A model generated the notes under the pieces. It saw only the letters and a program-made list of their open reading frames with translations, ran no database searches and had not been told where the DNA came from. 44,194 nucleotides of DNA, taken from assembly GCA_963581225.1 (NCBI GenBank), contig CAUZMW010000003.1, positions 1-44,194 of the forward strand, in the 5' to 3' direction. The stretch is from Gammaproteobacteria bacterium (GTDB lineage Bacteria; Pseudomonadota; Gammaproteobacteria; Steroidobacterales; Rariloculaceae). This document shows, one piece after another, positions 2-10,506 of this stretch. Position 1 is the stretch's first letter. Each line of letters starts with the position of its first letter. The translations under genes and the position numbers were made by a program.

Positions 2-529
2 ACCCGGACGCCGTCGGGCCAACCGCCTTTGCTCATCGACATGGCGATCCCGGCCGACATTGACCCGGAGGCCTGCGCGCAGCTCGATATCGAGCGCATC
101 GGCATGGATCGCATCACCCTCGAAGCCAAGACCAACCGCGGGGCGCGCCTGATCGAAGCGGCGCAAGCGCGCGAACTCGTCGACGAGGCCTTGTTAAGAC
201 TGCGCGATCGTTTCGCCGAGCGTGTCTACGGCCCGCTATTCGGCGCGCTGCAACAACGTTACCGGCATACGGCCCAGGAAGGCGTACAGCGACTGCTGAA
301 GAAGGAACTGAAAGGACTCGGCGTCGAAGAACGCGAAGCGATCGAGACCTGGACCGAAGTGCTGGCGCGGCGGTTCGCGCACATCCCCTGTCTCGGCCTG
401 CGCGGACTCCTCTATAACGGCCCCGACGGTTCACTGGACGCGTTCCTCGACGGCCTCGATCCCGAGTTCGCCGACGAATTGCGCCAGGCACTCGAACAGG
501 CATCGACACCAAAGCGGGCGGCGGGCTGA
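2..529 (+). CDS. hemA: Glutamyl-tRNA reductase, C-terminal part (5' end outside window)
   Basis: Frame open from the window edge; IDMAIPADIDP resembles the HemA IDLAVPRDID motif, followed by a helical dimerisation-like region; stop overlaps the hemC start. Confidence 0.8.
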   Translation, partial: TRTPSGQPPLLIDMAIPADIDPEACAQLDIERIGMDRITLEAKTNRGARLIEAAQARELVDEALLRLRDRFAERVYGPLFGALQQRYRHTAQEGVQRLLKKELKGLGVEEREAIETWTEVLARRFAHIPCLGLRGLLYNGPDGSLDAFLDGLDPEFADELRQALEQASTPKRAAG

Positions 530-1449
530 TGAAGATACGAATCGGCACGCGCGGCTCGCATCTAGCGCGCACCCAGGCTACAACCATAGCGACCGAACTC
601 GCCGAACTCGGCCACGAGACGGAGCTCGTCATCATCAGCACGGCCGGCGACCTGTCCGACGCGCCGAGTTTCGGCGCGATCGGCCCAACCGGCGTCTTCG
701 TACGCGAGATCGAACAGGCGTTACTCGACGATGCCGTCGACGTGGCCGTCCATTCGTTCAAGGACCTGCCGACCGAATCGCCTCCCGAACTCGTCATCGC
801 GGCGATACCGCAGCGCCACGACGAGGCGGACACGCTCATCATGACGCACGAAGCGAAGGCGGAGAAGCCCGGAAGCGTACCGATAAAAGACGGCGCGCGC
901 GTCGGCACCTCCTCCGCGCGGCGCCAGGCCTGGCTCAAACATCTTCGTCCCGATCTTCAGATCGAGCCACTACGCGGTAACGTACCGACGCGCATCGGCC
1001 GCCTGAACGACGACTTCGACGGCATCATACTTGCCGCTGCGGGGGTCACCCGGCTGCAGAAATCGGCGCTCGACGATCGTCCCGATCTCGATCTCGACGA
1101 GCGTATCCTCTGGCGACTCGACCCCAAGACGTTCGTACCCGCACCCGCGCAAGGTGCACTGGCGCTGCAGTGCCGCGCGGCGGACACGGAGGTTACCAGC
1201 GCGCTCACTATCCTGGGCCATGGCCCGACGCAACTTCATGTCGCCATTGAGCGCGCGTTGCTGATCCGCGTCGAAGGCAGTTGCGATCTCGCCTTCGGCG
1301 CCTATTGCGGGGAATCGAGTCGCGGCGACGGCACACTCGAACTCGTCGCCATGCTGGAGCACGATGACAGACTCATCGTCGCCAAGACTCACGGCAAGGA
1401 CCCCCACGCGCTCGTCGATATGGCCTGGGAAACACTGCAAGACCCATGA
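529..1449 (+). CDS. hemC: Hydroxymethylbilane synthase (porphobilinogen deaminase)
   Basis: IRIGTRGSHLA, AVHSFKDLP, GTSSARR, LRGNVPTR, PAPAQGAL and cofactor Cys in EGSC. Confidence 0.97.
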   Translation: MKIRIGTRGSHLARTQATTIATELAELGHETELVIISTAGDLSDAPSFGAIGPTGVFVREIEQALLDDAVDVAVHSFKDLPTESPPELVIAAIPQRHDEADTLIMTHEAKAEKPGSVPIKDGARVGTSSARRQAWLKHLRPDLQIEPLRGNVPTRIGRLNDDFDGIILAAAGVTRLQKSALDDRPDLDLDERILWRLDPKTFVPAPAQGALALQCRAADTEVTSALTILGHGPTQLHVAIERALLIRVEGSCDLAFGAYCGESSRGDGTLELVAMLEHDDRLIVAKTHGKDPHALVDMAWETLQDP

Positions 1450-2180
1450 ACGAGCTATCCGGACAGAGTGTGCTTCTCACGCGCAGCGAGGATGACTGCG
1501 CGGACTGGGCGCAGGAACTCGAAGCGATGGGCGCTACGGCTGTGATACTGCCGTGTATACGTAGCGAGCAGATCGACACCGCCGAACTTCGCGAGCGAAT
1601 CTCGGCCAGCTTGCCGCGTACCGACTGGCTCGTATTCACATCGAAGCGCGGCGTCGCAGCCTTCGTCGCGTTACATGGCGAGCCACTGCCCGATATCATC
1701 GGTATTGCCGTCATCGGACCGACGACCGCCGACGCGGCCGTCATCGCGTTCGGCCGCGCGGACCTCGTCAGCGAGGTGGGCACGGCCGAATCGTTGGCGC
1801 AGGCACTCGAGACGCACCTCACCGAACCCAACGCGCAGATCTTGATTGCCGTGGCGGAGAATGCAGGTTACACAATCGAGGATACGCTGCGTGCGGCCGG
1901 TGCGTACTGCACGCGGCTCGAGGTCTATCGAACCGTGGCGGCCGACGAGCTGACGCCGAAACAGGCGCTTTCGACATTCGATGCGGATAATGTATTTCTC
2001 GCGAGCCCTTCGGCGGTAACGGGTTTTACGAATCAGGTCGAATTGGACACACCGGCCGCGATCTTTACGATCGGACCGGCCACGAGCGAAGCGGCGCTGG
2101 ACGCCGGCCTCGAGGTGACGGGACAGGCGAGAAGCTCGGGGATCGAAGGATTGATGGAGGCGATGAGATGCGCGATATAG
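1446..2180 (+). CDS. hemD: Uroporphyrinogen-III synthase
   Basis: VLLTRS, WLVFTSKRGV, IGPTTA, VYRT, ASPSAV, IGPATS motifs; ATGA overlap with hemC. Confidence 0.9.
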   Translation: MNELSGQSVLLTRSEDDCADWAQELEAMGATAVILPCIRSEQIDTAELRERISASLPRTDWLVFTSKRGVAAFVALHGEPLPDIIGIAVIGPTTADAAVIAFGRADLVSEVGTAESLAQALETHLTEPNAQILIAVAENAGYTIEDTLRAAGAYCTRLEVYRTVAADELTPKQALSTFDADNVFLASPSAVTGFTNQVELDTPAAIFTIGPATSEAALDAGLEVTGQARSSGIEGLMEAMRCAI

Positions 2181-8051: not shown

Positions 8052-8059
8052 AAGGAACG

Positions 8060-9145
8060 ATGGCGAACACGCGCGACGCGAACGTCGATCACGAGGGCCA
8101 CGACTACGACGCCATACTCGTCGTGTCGTTCGGCGGCCCCGAGGGTCCCGACGACGTCGTGCCATTTCTCGACAACGTGCTACGTGGATTGAAGATCCCG
8201 CTAGCGGCCAAAGAGCGCATCGCGAAACGTTACGAGCACTTCGGCGGCGTCAGTCCGATCAACGCCGAGACGCGCGCGTTCATCGCGGCGCTCGAGAGCG
8301 AGTTACGCGCGCACGGCATCGACCTGCCCGTGTACTGGGGCAACCGCAACTGGCACCCGCTGCTGGCAGACACGCTCGAGAGAATGCAGGCAGACGGGAT
8401 CAAGCGAGCACTGGCGCACGTGACCAGCACGTTCGCCTCCTATAGCGGTTGCCGCAAGTACCGCGAGGATCTGTACGAGGCGACCGCGGCACTCGAGCAG
8501 CCGCTAGTCATCGACAAGCTGCGGCTCGGGTTTAACCATCCGGGGTTCCTCGCCGCGACCATGGGCCGTACACACCAGGCATTCGAAACAATACCCGCTG
8601 CGCGACGAGCCGAGACCCCACTATTGTTCACGGCTCACAGCCTGCCCAAGTCGATGGCTGAACATGCCCCCTACGAGGCGCAACTACACGAAGCCTGCGG
8701 GCTCGTCGCCGCGGCGCTCGAGCACGATGAATGGGCGCTCGCCTACCAGAGCAACAATGCAGCATATGGGGAGCCGTGGCTGGAGACTGATATCTGTGAG
8801 AAATTGCGGGACCTCGGCAGGCTCGGCGTGCAGGATGTTGTGGTGATGCCGATCGGCTTTGTCTGCGATCACATAGAGATCGTGCTCGATCTCGACATCG
8901 AGGCGCAAGCCGTCGCTGATGAAGCCGGCGTAAATATGGTCCGTGCGGCGACGGTCGGTGCGCATCCCACCTACGTCGGCATGGTCCGCGAGCTCATTGA
9001 AGAGCGCATGAGTTCGAATTCGGAACGGCTGAGCTTCGGCAGGCTCGGCCCAAGCCATGATTTCTGTCCCGCGGACTGCTGTCTATCGGGCCGACCCGGC
9101 GATCCGAAACCGGCGCTGTGTGGCGTCCCGGGAACCGAAGCTTGA
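8060..9145 (+). CDS. hemH: Ferrochelatase, actinobacterial-like (probable coproporphyrin ferrochelatase CpfC) with putative [2Fe-2S] cysteines
   Basis: SFGGPEG, YEHFGGVSPIN, VYWGNRNWHP, FTAHSLP, PIGFVCDHIE; YSGCRKY plus C-terminal CPADCC. Confidence 0.93.
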   Translation: MANTRDANVDHEGHDYDAILVVSFGGPEGPDDVVPFLDNVLRGLKIPLAAKERIAKRYEHFGGVSPINAETRAFIAALESELRAHGIDLPVYWGNRNWHPLLADTLERMQADGIKRALAHVTSTFASYSGCRKYREDLYEATAALEQPLVIDKLRLGFNHPGFLAATMGRTHQAFETIPAARRAETPLLFTAHSLPKSMAEHAPYEAQLHEACGLVAAALEHDEWALAYQSNNAAYGEPWLETDICEKLRDLGRLGVQDVVVMPIGFVCDHIEIVLDLDIEAQAVADEAGVNMVRAATVGAHPTYVGMVRELIEERMSSNSERLSFGRLGPSHDFCPADCCLSGRPGDPKPALCGVPGTEA

Positions 9146-10506
9146 CCGAGATTCACGAGCATGACGCGATCGTCATCGGCGCCGGCCTCGCGGGACTGGC
9201 CGCGGCGCTGAAGCTGCAGGCCGCGGGCGTCGATGCGCGGGTCATCGAAGCGCAGGATCGAGTCGGCGGCCGCGTGCACTCGATGCGCCAGTTGGGCAGT
9301 AATAAGGAAGCCGGCGGTACCTACATCGGCGCCGGTTATACGCGCGTCATCGGCGCGGCCGAACGCTATGGCGTCGGGCTCATCGACGTGACGCCGATGC
9401 TGGCGTTCTTCCGTGAGCAAGAACTCGTGCTTGGCGATGAAATCATCCGTCAGGCGGACTGGCCCGATCATCCCGCAAACCTGTTCCGCGGCGACGACAA
9501 GCCGATCATGCCGTGGGCGTATCACCGTTTGCTCACGGTGCGGGAGAATCCACTGACACAACCCGGCGACTGGCTCGCTGCCGACGCGGCCGCCTATGAT
9601 GTCTCGGCTTACGACTGGCTGAAGAGTCTCGGTCTCGACGACGACGCGATCAAGCTCGCCTATGGCATCAACGTCAGCTTCGGCAAGGACGCCCATGACG
9701 TCTCGGCGTTGTTGCTGTTTTTCCGTGCGGCCTTTTCCGTTGCGCAACGTCGCTTCGCGCCCGAGGGCATCGTCGGCTACACGGCCAGGAACGGCGTCGC
9801 CCGCATCCCCGAGACCATGGCCGAAGCGTTGAATCCACCGGCAGAACTGAACAAGGTGGTCGTGGCGATCACAACCCAGGCGGATCACGCCGAGGTACGT
9901 TGCGCGGATGGCAGTATCTATCGGGCGCCGCACATCGTGTGCTCGCTGCCGTTCGGCGTACTGCGGCACATCGACATGAATCCGCCGCTGCAGGGCCTGC
10001 AAGCTGAAGCGGTCAACACGCTGCCGGCGCAGGCCGTGACGCAGGTCTATCTCGCCCACAAATCCAATTTCTGGGAGGCGGACGGCTACACGGCGAGTCT
10101 ATTTACCGACGGCGTTGCCGGCATGGTAGCGGCCGCGAGAAACGGCGCCGACCCCGAGGAGGTCACGAGCTTTACGGCCTGGACGCTCGGACCGAACGCG
10201 AGCGTACTCGACGCGCTGGCGCCGGCCGATGCCGGCAGGCGCGTGATCGCGGAGATCGAACGCATACGGCCCGCCGCCAAGGGCCAGCTCGAATTTTTGG
10301 GGCTGAAGTCCTGGGGCACGGATCCGTTCGCTCAGGGCGGTTGGGCCTATTTCAAGCCCGGCCAGATCACGCGTTTCGGCGCCGCGATGGGCGCGCCGCA
10401 CGGCCAGATACGATTCTGTGGCGAGCACCTGGGGCGAGTCAGCCGCGGTATGGAAGGCGCGATGGAATCCGGCGAACGCGTCGCCGCCGAGATCCTCGAG
10501 TTATAA
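9142..10506 (+). CDS. FAD-dependent flavin amine oxidase family protein
   Basis: [35 protein letters not shown]...[12 protein letters not shown] start overlaps the ferrochelatase stop (TTGA). Confidence 0.88.

Follow-up and report, generated by a model that had tools for sequence, protein, structure and literature searches.

How does a gammaproteobacterium with a heme operon of the coproporphyrin-dependent type oxidise coproporphyrinogen III, when searches of its genome find no known porphyrinogen oxidase? The question arises from the window, by which we mean the whole stretch of DNA analysed, 44,194 nucleotides that make up the entire contig C3. Positions 2-10506 of its plus strand form one translationally coupled operon of eleven genes in the order hemA-hemC-hemD-hemB-hemL-histidine kinase-response regulator-hemE-ChdC-like-ferrochelatase-flavin amine oxidase. 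On balance, we think that this operon encodes the whole heme b pathway by the coproporphyrin-dependent route in a marine, Candidatus Rariloculaceae-like gammaproteobacterium, with the last gene as the presumptive coproporphyrinogen oxidase. The genes of the operon and its context are as follows.

2-529, plus strand: 3' part of hemA (glutamyl-tRNA reductase); PF00745 27.8 bits, TIGR01035 positions 268-394
529-1449, plus strand: hemC (hydroxymethylbilane synthase); TIGR00212 258.3 bits, cut-off 164
1446-2180, plus strand: hemD (uroporphyrinogen-III synthase); PF02602 134 bits
2168-3172, plus strand: hemB (porphobilinogen synthase); NF006762 457.2 bits, cut-off 297
3169-4485, plus strand: hemL (glutamate-1-semialdehyde aminomutase); NF000818 575.3 bits, cut-off 398
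4475-5560, plus strand: membrane histidine kinase; HisKA 57.2 bits, HATPase_c 90.4 bits
5557-6273, plus strand: OmpR-type response regulator; Response_reg 103.6 bits, Trans_reg_C 77.7 bits
6284-7333, plus strand: hemE (uroporphyrinogen decarboxylase), GTG start; TIGR01464 387.8 bits, cut-off 302.95
7335-8051, plus strand: divergent ChdC/HemQ-like coproheme decarboxylase (Cld/ChdC family); PF06778 45.5 bits, cut-off 25
8060-9145, plus strand: ferrochelatase, actinobacterial CpfC type, with Cys-rich C-terminal tail; PF00762 256.7 bits
9142-10506, plus strand: flavin amine-oxidase family protein with no signal peptide; candidate coproporphyrinogen III oxidase; PF01593 166.9 bits
10628-11392, plus strand: cysH (context), with an in-frame TAA at 11006-11008; tblastn against CysH of the congener G004, 81% identity
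11490-12500, minus strand: cysB (context), host-type marker; NF009326 439.5 bits, cut-off 436
12770-14206, plus strand: cysG (context; siroheme synthase); NF007922 556.4 bits, cut-off 400

Profile matches recover, on the plus strand, all the heme-pathway genes named in a preliminary description of this DNA, and the overlapping or near-abutting junctions it reported are borne out: overlaps span 1-13 nt (hemA/hemC 1, hemC/hemD 4, hemD/hemB 13, hemB/hemL 4, histidine kinase/response regulator 4, cpfC/oxidase 4) and gaps 1-10 nt (response regulator/hemE 10, hemE/chdC 1, chdC/cpfC 8). The contig start truncates hemA, which is full-length (444 aa) at the head of the operon in the relative L011. That description overlooked the two-component pair between hemL and hemE, and it left the last open reading frame unnamed, which belongs to the flavin amine-oxidase family. 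The longest reading frame of the histidine kinase, 4307-5560, starts inside hemL, and ATG 4475 is its probable start; the protein has two hydrophobic stretches around a loop of ~80 residues (read by eye), and the gene keeps its position between hemL and hemE across family loci. The response regulator reaches no NCBIfam equivalog cut-off. The two embedded proteins presumably regulate the operon. Downstream, the cysH stop codon replaces a Leu of the G004 CysH, and the contig of an independent sequencing run has identical letters there.

Family assignment shows HemA, HemL, HemB, HemC and HemD as the predicted route to uroporphyrinogen III and HemE as the predicted step to coproporphyrinogen III, from which the preferred pathway would continue by oxidation to coproporphyrin III, iron insertion by an actinobacterial-type CpfC and decarboxylation of coproheme to heme by the divergent ChdC. 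The genome is a metagenome-assembled genome of 195 contigs, 96.26% complete with 0.84% contamination, so that ~4% is unassembled. The absence of hemF, hemN, hemG, hemJ and canonical hemY, earlier noted for the window, holds for the entire genome, and neither CgoN/DUF1444 nor a Flavodoxin_5 (HemG-like) protein was found in this 96.26% complete assembly; nor does it contain a second copy of hemB, hemC, hemD, hemE, ferrochelatase, chdC or the oxidase. It does contain two heme-copper oxidase genes, and the host therefore needs heme and lives with O2. What had been called a near-complete heme module is near-complete only if its last gene is not counted, and rather than an added module it is the sole heme pathway found in the genome. 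There is no canonical CgoX, and no gene other than the amine-oxidase-like one of the operon is a candidate for that step.

We considered whether this last gene belongs to the HemY family and rejected the assignment: TIGR00562 matches only its N-terminal FAD motif and, with 27.9 bits, stays below the cut-off of 97.85, and no porphyrinogen oxidase occurs among its 60 best PDB sequences or 50 best structural entries. The profile itself picks up CgoX in each of the four control genomes that it matched at E<=1e-15 (B. subtilis, Thermus, Deinococcus and C. glutamicum), and likewise in four of five non-family genomes that carry this ChdC clade; its cut-off is passed in only 2 of the 24 family genomes, one of them G004. 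Another family genome, G014, has a canonical HemY alongside a retained oxidase, and G010 and G023 encode possible HemG-like proteins of the Flavodoxin_5 family. In six family genomes of 97-100% completeness, neither HemJ nor CgoN was found.

The last gene starts at TTG 9142, overlapping the cpfC stop, and directly follows cpfC in all 33 family loci with room for it, with an identity across the family (55-80%) comparable to that of cpfC (58-72%). The genome has no other full-length protein of PF01593, a FAD superfamily that also includes HemY, as the HemY of G004 shows. A Tat signal is present in the nearest homologues outside the family (41-48% identity) and absent in the operon-linked clade only, and an invariant Gly occupies the position aligned with the aromatic-cage Tyr435 of MAO-B. 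In net charge, the family oxidases are no more positive than their homologues. From its context and sequence we consider it somewhat probable that the last gene encodes the coproporphyrinogen oxidase, possibly a new enzyme for this step: a cytoplasmic, monoamine-oxidase-like FAD protein that would have replaced HemY/CgoX, would convert coproporphyrinogen III to coproporphyrin III with O2, and would release the H2O2 needed by ChdC.

A further indication comes from G004, where one 2933-nt deletion took chdC, cpfC and all but a 3' remnant of the oxidase, and nothing else. G004 has a hemH-hemN-hemY cluster, and the flanks of its contig match genome G000 at ~80%. The best explanation is that this congener later exchanged the three terminal genes for hemH-hemN-hemY.

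A single deletion can, of course, take a bystander along with its neighbours, and the loss of the oxidase in G004 could be collateral to that of chdC and cpfC. The coproporphyrin pathway would then be real and the last gene an ordinary amine oxidase, with coproporphyrinogen oxidised by another enzyme or by air, a reading that we regard as unlikely though worth serious weight. The nearest structures and sequences of the last gene are all amine oxidases: VIA-align gives Z of 34.5-39.4 for 50 amine-oxidase entries (rmsd ~3 Å, ~410-430 residues aligned), MAO-B scores 117 bits with the sequence and 254 bits with the family profile, and protoporphyrinogen and coproporphyrinogen oxidases are all far more distant from the protein than monoamine, putrescine and L-amino-acid oxidases are. 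Source records name it 'flavin monoamine oxidase family protein', and its homologues elsewhere do not lie beside heme genes. Against a bystander stand the coupling to the cpfC stop, the unbroken adjacency to cpfC, the lack of a Tat signal in the operon-linked clade alone, the invariant Gly in place of Tyr435, and a gap in the pathway for which no known porphyrinogen oxidase was found.

Flavin amine oxidases that use O2 release H2O2. The last gene could thus be an amine oxidase kept as a peroxide source for ChdC, with coproporphyrinogen oxidised non-enzymatically. Its tight linkage to cpfC and chdC fits this idea, as does the use of hydrogen peroxide by ChdC, described in a passage of PMC13564367. 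We nevertheless hold it to be improbable: the amine substrate it requires has no evident connection with heme, an essential pathway would be left to rely on a six-electron oxidation that is slow and uncatalysed, and nothing points specifically to it.

If the coproporphyrin pathway itself were misread, protoporphyrin would be the substrate of the ferrochelatase, the Cld-like protein would not decarboxylate coproheme, and the unassembled part of this fragmented genome would hold the missing enzymes, or heme uptake would make them dispensable. The ChdC-like protein gives some grounds for this, as its Pfam match is limited to the C-terminal half and it misses both NCBIfam HemQ equivalogs (34.6 bits against 235). 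Its AF2 model (pLDDT 91.7), however, finds its nearest folds in the coproheme decarboxylases of S. coelicolor and C. diphtheriae (E ~1e-12, TM 0.66-0.70); Y139 and H162 align with Y135 and the EHG-motif histidine, respectively, of the C. diphtheriae enzyme, and this catalytic Tyr and proximal His are invariant in 34 sequences. In other phyla the same ChdC clade lies within heme operons of the order hemB-chdC-hemE-cpfC-hemL. The sequence of the ferrochelatase, which ends in a conserved cysteine tail, places it in the actinobacterial CpfC type: its best PDB chain is 28wn_A, 'Coproporphyrin III ferrochelatase', with 241.9 bits against 92 bits for the human enzyme; it scores 376.8 bits with NF000689, just under the equivalog cut-off of 408, a profile that at E<=1e-70 matches only Corynebacterium glutamicum among 14 control genomes; and C131, C336, C340 and C341 are kept in family loci. 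HemF, moreover, is lacking in each of the 24 other family genomes, five of them in one or two contigs, as against its presence in 14 of 16 other families of the order. A misread pathway is accordingly very improbable.

The weakest alternative, an assembly or binning artefact at the junction of operon and cys genes, draws on a G+C content of 62-66% in the operon against 58.8% in the genome and has almost no probability left, since a single 8281-nt contig from an independent run covers window positions 4000-11420 with 15 differences, many family loci (some titled chromosome) have the order operon-cysH-cysB-cysG, and 16 sequencing runs contain the stretch at half or more of the sampled words.

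Relatives of the host are titled Candidatus Rariloculaceae (Gammaproteobacteria), and the proposal of a diderm gammaproteobacterial host for an operon of this type is upheld by an RND pump, a membrane-fusion protein and an OEP/TolC gene at 33639-39319 and by CysB and CysG, both above their NCBIfam equivalog cut-offs. Family loci, some of them on complete chromosomes, repeat the gene order of the operon. We found a ChdC-like gene in 21 of 24 family genomes versus none of 16 other families of the order, and this ChdC clade in none of 399 other sampled Gammaproteobacteria; it is common to Acidobacteriota, Chloroflexota, Verrucomicrobiota and others. In trees of HemB and HemE the other Gammaproteobacteria (21 and 24, respectively) form one clade with SH-aLRT of 99 and 98, and the family clade lies outside it; the operon as a whole is thus a replacement of long standing that was already present in the ancestor of the family. 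The horizontal acquisition suggested earlier thus stands insofar as the genes are foreign to the class; it was not recent, given their presence in 21 of 24 family genomes, and the operon ancestral to the host lineage that had been set against it is what we find at the family level. The best explanation is that, at the root of the family, the operon displaced the protoporphyrin route. With a multi-phylum ChdC clade and an actinobacterial type of ferrochelatase, the donor looks mosaic.

Passages in two reviews assign the coproporphyrin pathway to Gram-positives 'with a few exceptions' or 'some diderm bacteria' (PMC10740692, PMC7611857). The operon shares with the pathway of Actinobacteria and Firmicutes (HemE, CgoX/HemY, CpfC/HemH, ChdC/HemQ) the predicted order of oxidation, iron insertion and decarboxylation, a HemE, a CpfC-type ferrochelatase and a ChdC-fold protein, and the lack of HemF/HemN and of a protoporphyrinogen oxidase. 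It differs in its diderm gammaproteobacterial host, in having no HemY-type CgoX, in the gathering of all eleven genes, a two-component system among them, in one operon, and in a ChdC from a divergent clade. Actinobacterial CpfC carries a C-terminal [2Fe-2S] cluster, as a passage of PMC7340540 describes; the protein here shares the NF000689 match and a C-terminal extension with C336, C340 and C341, plus C131, but it comes from a proteobacterial host, scores below the equivalog cut-off, and any cluster in it is putative. CgoX, the FAD-dependent coproporphyrinogen III oxidase, resembles the product of the last gene in PF01593 membership, similar size, linkage to the terminal genes and proposed O2 dependence, whereas the latter falls outside the HemY family. 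CgoN (YtpQ, DUF1444), presented in part of PMC10965808 as the oxygen-independent coproporphyrinogen oxidase of Priestia megaterium, likewise solves this step without HemY and was found through its gene neighbourhood, but has an unrelated fold, and DUF1444 is absent in this genome and six family genomes. Unlike its nearest homologues, the candidate oxidase has no signal peptide. With MAO A/B, putrescine oxidase, cyclohexylamine oxidase and NicA2 it shares the fold and FAD-binding motifs; it differs from these flavin amine oxidases in its 19-24% identity, in the Gly at the Tyr435 position and in its location in a heme operon.

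The operon at window positions 2-10506 on the forward strand very probably encodes a complete coproporphyrin-dependent heme pathway. The heme genes named for this interval in the preliminary description were seen correctly and lie on this strand; its gene list overlooked a two-component pair and left the last gene, for a signal-less flavin amine-oxidase family protein (hereafter the oxidase), nameless. The genes are:

2-529, forward: hemA, 3' part, truncated at the contig start; the full 444-aa gene stands first in a relative's operon
529-1449, forward: hemC
1446-2180, forward: hemD
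2168-3172, forward: hemB
3169-4485, forward: hemL
4475-5560, forward: histidine kinase gene, start probable
5557-6273, forward: OmpR-type response regulator gene
6284-7333, forward: hemE, GTG start; TIGR01464 387.8 bits against a cut-off of 302.95
7335-8051, forward: Cld/ChdC-family gene
8060-9145, forward: ferrochelatase gene
9142-10506, forward: flavin amine-oxidase family gene, whose TTG start overlaps the ferrochelatase stop

Adjacent genes overlap by 1-13 bases or are separated by gaps of 1-10 bases and so form a single coupled operon. A promoter and terminator scan of window 1-12800 gave counts not above those of shuffles (4 versus 3.0; 12 versus 8.5) and so no signal of an operon boundary. 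Heme-responsive two-component systems are known (HssRS, HrrSA/ChrSA), and the embedded kinase and regulator probably control the operon. The kinase, read by eye, has two hydrophobic stretches flanking a loop of ~80 residues, and the pair matched generic HisKA/HATPase_c and OmpR-type domains only, reaching no equivalog cut-off.

On its 3' side the operon is followed by cysH, cysB (reverse strand) and cysG, and farther on by genes for an RND pump, a membrane-fusion protein and an outer-membrane efflux protein. The operon order followed by cysH, cysB and cysG is repeated in related loci, chromosome-titled records included. A chimeric join, a concern of the preliminary description, is countered by a single 8281-nt contig from an independent run that covers window 4000-11420 with 15 differences; a 3440-nt contig from a second independent run covers 7977-11416 with a single difference, at 11313. 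At least half of the sampled words of window 4000-11500 occur in 16 public marine, seawater or vent metagenome runs, one of which may be the source. Contigs from a marine-sediment RNA library cover hemL, the kinase and regulator genes, hemE, chdC, the oxidase gene and cysH at ~90-98% identity; we rejected them as transcript evidence, as they come from relatives and are possibly DNA carry-over.

Downstream, the cysH frame (PAPS/APS reductase, 10628-11392, forward) has an in-frame TAA at 11006-11008 where the congener G004 has Leu, and the remainder of the frame is 81% identical to CysH of G004. The independent-run contig spanning 7977-11416 carries the same letters, so a genuine nonsense allele seems likelier than an assembly error. 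Two PhoD-like phosphatase genes (23565-25133 and 27517-29040, both reverse strand), with genes for a PepSY_TM protein and a zinc-type dehydrogenase in between, may form a phosphate-scavenging cluster; a DUF5916 protein is encoded at 29051-31123.

The host is gammaproteobacterial, as had been proposed: the closest ChdC-like proteins (76-84% identity) come from loci titled Candidatus Rariloculaceae or Candidatus Rariloculus, a family that NCBI places in the Gammaproteobacteria, order Candidatus Rariloculales, and the operon-adjacent CysB and CysG exceed their NCBIfam equivalog cut-offs. The window is contig C3 (44,194 bases) from end to end, and its genome (2.55 Mb in 195 contigs, 96.26% complete, contamination 0.84%) carries two heme-copper oxidase subunit I genes, and thus needs heme and respires oxygen. 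The operon is the sole heme pathway found in this genome. Whole-genome tblastn found no second copy of hemB, hemC, hemD, hemE, the ferrochelatase gene, the ChdC-like gene or the oxidase gene. The reported lack of hemF, hemN, hemG, hemJ and canonical hemY in the window extends to the genome, in which family searches gave no match to HemF (PF01218), HemN (TIGR00538), HemJ (PF03653) or the Flavodoxin_5/HemG family (PF12724), and a best match to the HemY profile TIGR00562 of 29.4 bits against a cut-off of 97.85. DUF1444, the family of the coproporphyrinogen oxidase CgoN, likewise had no match in the 96.26%-complete genome. HemJ and DUF1444 are also absent from six family genomes that are 97-100% complete, among which Flavodoxin_5 is found only in both genomes of one genus.

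The ferrochelatase appears nearer the coproporphyrin-type enzyme CpfC than PpfC. On NF000689, which at E<=1e-70 matches Corynebacterium glutamicum alone among 14 control genomes, it scores 376.8 bits, under the cut-off of 408; in contrast, HemH of G004 scores 45.4 bits. Its best solved relative is 28wn_A, titled "Coproporphyrin III ferrochelatase" (241.9 bits), compared with 123.5 bits for Listeria CpfC (6sv3), ~124-130 for other bacterial CpfC or ferrochelatase chains and ~92 for the human enzyme. The C-terminal tail has three cysteines (C336, C340 and C341) that, like C131, are conserved wherever a family locus extends over them. Actinobacterial CpfCs are described, in a Listeria CpfC paper, as carrying a C-terminal [2Fe-2S] cluster and forming their own clade (PMC7340540), and Table S2 of PMC8529089, a table of ferrochelatases by family, might bear on earlier sightings of proteobacterial CpfCs.

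The Cld/ChdC-family gene encodes a predicted, divergent coproheme decarboxylase. Its PF06778 match is over the cut-off (45.5 bits) and confined to the C-terminal half of the protein, and neither of two NCBIfam HemQ equivalogs is reached (34.6 bits versus 235). A model built from 34 sequences (pLDDT 91.7) has as its nearest folds the coproheme decarboxylases of Streptomyces coelicolor and Corynebacterium diphtheriae (E ~1e-12, TM 0.66-0.70), with chlorite dismutases ranking below them. In a HMMER alignment Y139 aligns with the catalytic Tyr135 of C. diphtheriae (named Y135 in the PDB title of 7q4g, the two-residue offset being fixed by the W183Y entry) and H162 with the EHG histidine; neither residue varies among the 34 sequences. 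The clade (alignment A2) also has a long invariant stretch, R-L-A-C-x-G-x-D-x-x-D-N-D-F, for which no match was found among the motifs of solved coproheme decarboxylases. The ESM Atlas yielded clusters with generic names only ("flavin monoamine oxidase" and "hydrogen peroxide-dependent heme synthase").

The ChdC-like gene is found in 21 of the 24 other family genomes (the three without it are 74%, 80% and 95% complete) and in none of 16 genomes representing 16 other families of the order. HemF shows the reverse pattern, with no match in the 24 family genomes versus 14 of the 16 (two matches weak); leaving out G039, one of the 16, which is flagged unpublished, the counts are 0 of 15 for the ChdC-like gene and 13 of 15 for HemF. 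A profile of the ChdC-like clade had no match in 399 other Gammaproteobacteria sampled evenly across the class, one genome being unscorable. Among 39 family loci, 16 hold all eleven genes in the same order, each at half or more of the query, and the remainder stop at a contig end or contain fragmented genes. At L038 (7656-9885) hemB is followed directly by hemE, with neither hemL nor the kinase-regulator pair in the operon, and at L040 no hemA-to-hemL matches occur upstream of the kinase gene. Three genomes from other families of the order (G026, G034 and G038) have no HemE match at E<=1e-20 and an absent or weak HemF, and may be heme auxotrophs or users of another route; G038, 100% complete, carries the Tat-signal amine oxidase as four paralogues.

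The operon is old and, by its gene trees, foreign to the class. The 46-row HemE tree (two loci whose match contained a stop were omitted) unites the HemE proteins of 24 other Gammaproteobacteria, 12 belonging to other families of the order and 12 to families elsewhere in the class, in a single clade (SH-aLRT 98). This clade excludes the family, whose own 13 rows group together with support 100 and a stem length of 1.13. The three clean groups also came out of a more careful HemE tree with 37 rows; they say nothing on which two are closer and became informative with the addition of 12 Gammaproteobacteria. The HemB tree (42 rows) places 21 other Gammaproteobacteria in a single clade (99) and the 11 family rows (100) next to six Chloroflexota-like rows (89), of which one bears the title Cellvibrionaceae; the long branch L157 is unreliable there, and three family loci have no hemB coverage. 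The window's HemB shares 52-55% identity with its counterparts in three non-proteobacterial genomes and 43-51% with those of sampled Gammaproteobacteria. The placement of HemB and HemE indicates that the early genes also came in, not the terminal genes alone. The Cellvibrionaceae-titled locus, L050, falls in the Chloroflexota group in both trees, and its HemB and HemE differ very little from the proteins of L043 (Anaerolineae); its contig has probably been mis-binned or mislabelled.

Beyond the family, the closest ChdC-like proteins (49-58% identity) are titled Vicinamibacterales, Anaerolineae, Bryobacterales, Elusimicrobia, Kiritimatiellae, Verrucomicrobia and Polyangiaceae. Several of these loci are operons of the form hemB-chdC-hemE-ferrochelatase-hemL, with ferrochelatases just 30-33% identical to that of the window. 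There may have been more than one donor; the trees were built without named actinobacterial or firmicute genomes. The G+C content of the operon (62-66% versus 58.8% for the genome) is a weak signal of foreign origin.

The congener G004, 95% complete, has no ChdC-like gene, and a query with the window-type ferrochelatase finds none in it. Its operon matches window 5-7291 and continues directly into 10225-10400 and 10632-15195, at ~80% identity, so that a single 2933-base deletion has removed the ChdC-like gene, the ferrochelatase gene and most of the oxidase gene, leaving a 3' oxidase remnant. Elsewhere G004 has an 809-aa open frame (L089, contig C13, 2828-5257, reverse strand) that appears to fuse HemH (TIGR00109 299 bits) to HemN (TIGR00538 558 bits), either as a true fusion or through a lost stop, and next to it a gene for a canonical HemY (305 bits) follows. 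Parts of this contig, both ends of a 14-kb segment of it included, are 79-82% identical to contig C26 of the genome that holds the window. Three coproporphyrin-branch enzymes have thus been replaced by three of the protoporphyrin branch, the oxidase being lost with its neighbours. In the family genome G014 both branch sets are present, with HemH and HemN as separate frames. The swap back in G004 is a natural experiment, in which the deleted stretch can serve to delimit the functional unit.

Linkage to the operon, this joint loss, loss of an export signal and the lack of an alternative enzyme together make the amine-oxidase-like protein a candidate for the coproporphyrinogen oxidase of the pathway, an assignment to which we give somewhat better than even chances. 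The flavoprotein encoded by the last gene would convert coproporphyrinogen III to coproporphyrin III, a chemistry within reach given that HemY enzymes belong to the same FAD superfamily. The gene lies directly after that for the ferrochelatase in all 33 family loci with room for it (in at least two pieces in seven), and its orthologues are 55-80% identical across the family, a conservation equal to that of the ferrochelatase. It encodes the sole full-length PF01593 protein of the genome (166.9 bits, residues 24-460). By sequence the oxidase is not a HemY: its TIGR00562 match of 27.9 bits covers the FAD motif only (residues 15-66), compared with 304.7 bits for HemY of G004.

The nearest homologues outside the family (41-48% identity) are ~30 residues longer and start with twin-arginine signal peptides. 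Oxidase homologues occur in five of 399 genomes of other Gammaproteobacteria, and all eight have Tat-like signals; no heme genes lie beside them, in loci that reach just 1.5 kb on each side. As all near homologues carry signals, the operon-linked clade has lost its export signal. A distant signal-less homologue, P0131, has five full-length relatives in metagenome contigs, with no heme genes within 6 kb. They are 26-34% identical to P0131 and 39-48% to the oxidase of the window, the nearest (L159) has a signal peptide, and they neither help nor hurt the proposed role. The oxidase has 33 family-specific positions, including R91, R103, R129, R195 and H306, which we did not count as evidence, and the net charge of the family oxidases is not more positive than that of their homologues.

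The main rival reading is that the last gene encodes a bystander amine oxidase and that coproporphyrinogen is oxidized by an unknown enzyme or by air. Its sequence (117 bits to MAO-B) and the family profile (254 bits) place the oxidase among amine oxidases, and it shares the fold of MAO A (Z 39.4, 428 residues aligned by VIA-align). Foldseek and VIA-align (Z 34.5-39.4) agree: their 50 listed entries, among them monoamine, putrescine, cyclohexylamine, nicotine and L-amino-acid oxidases, are all amine oxidases and include no porphyrinogen oxidase, a result that does not exclude unlisted families. Set against this, the position of the MAO-B cage residue Tyr435 (a role taken from PDB titles) is occupied by Gly (G436 in the 454-aa form), invariant in 90 sequences, which argues that the oxidase is not a typical amine oxidase. 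A Trp is found at the position that we take to be Tyr398.

A canonical coproporphyrinogen oxidase is missing from the genome. At E<=1e-15, TIGR00562 matches exactly four of the control genomes (B. subtilis, Thermus, Deinococcus and C. glutamicum) and also four of five non-family genomes bearing the same ChdC clade, and so is a good detector of CgoX. A Kiritimatiellae record has its TIGR00562 match adjoining chdC and hemE. Within the family the profile exceeds its cut-off in just two of 24 genomes. Returning to the oxidase as the candidate enzyme, we regard as evenly balanced the broader proposal that it is a third, unrecognised kind of coproporphyrinogen III oxidase, derived from a Tat-exported family, and that the terminal branches are exchangeable cassettes within the genus.

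Accounts of the distribution of the coproporphyrin route name Chloroflexi and Acidobacteria in one passage (PMC10740692) and "some diderm bacteria" in another (PMC7611857), and CgoN is described in PMC10965808. Our searches of titles and the starts of abstracts, covering few subscription journals, returned nothing on heme in Rariloculaceae or Rariloculus, and a search for amine-oxidase-like coproporphyrinogen oxidases with similar coverage of subscription journals returned just a general heme-production review. According to a 2026 review (PMC13564367), every known heme-synthesising organism is accounted for by the known PPD, AHB and CPD enzymes; with a complete coproporphyrin route and neither CgoX nor CgoN, the family would be an exception to that statement. 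Here a "Gram-positive" route has displaced the classical pathway in a gammaproteobacterial family that is widespread in the sea and in soil, a replacement that bears on the use of the coproporphyrin route as a monoderm marker or selective drug target. Compared with the coproporphyrin-dependent pathway as known, this genome has neither a HemY-type CgoX nor CgoN, a gap for which the oxidase supplies a concrete candidate; it agrees with that pathway in the absence of HemF, HemN and a protoporphyrinogen oxidase and in the presence of HemE, a CpfC-type ferrochelatase and a ChdC-like protein.
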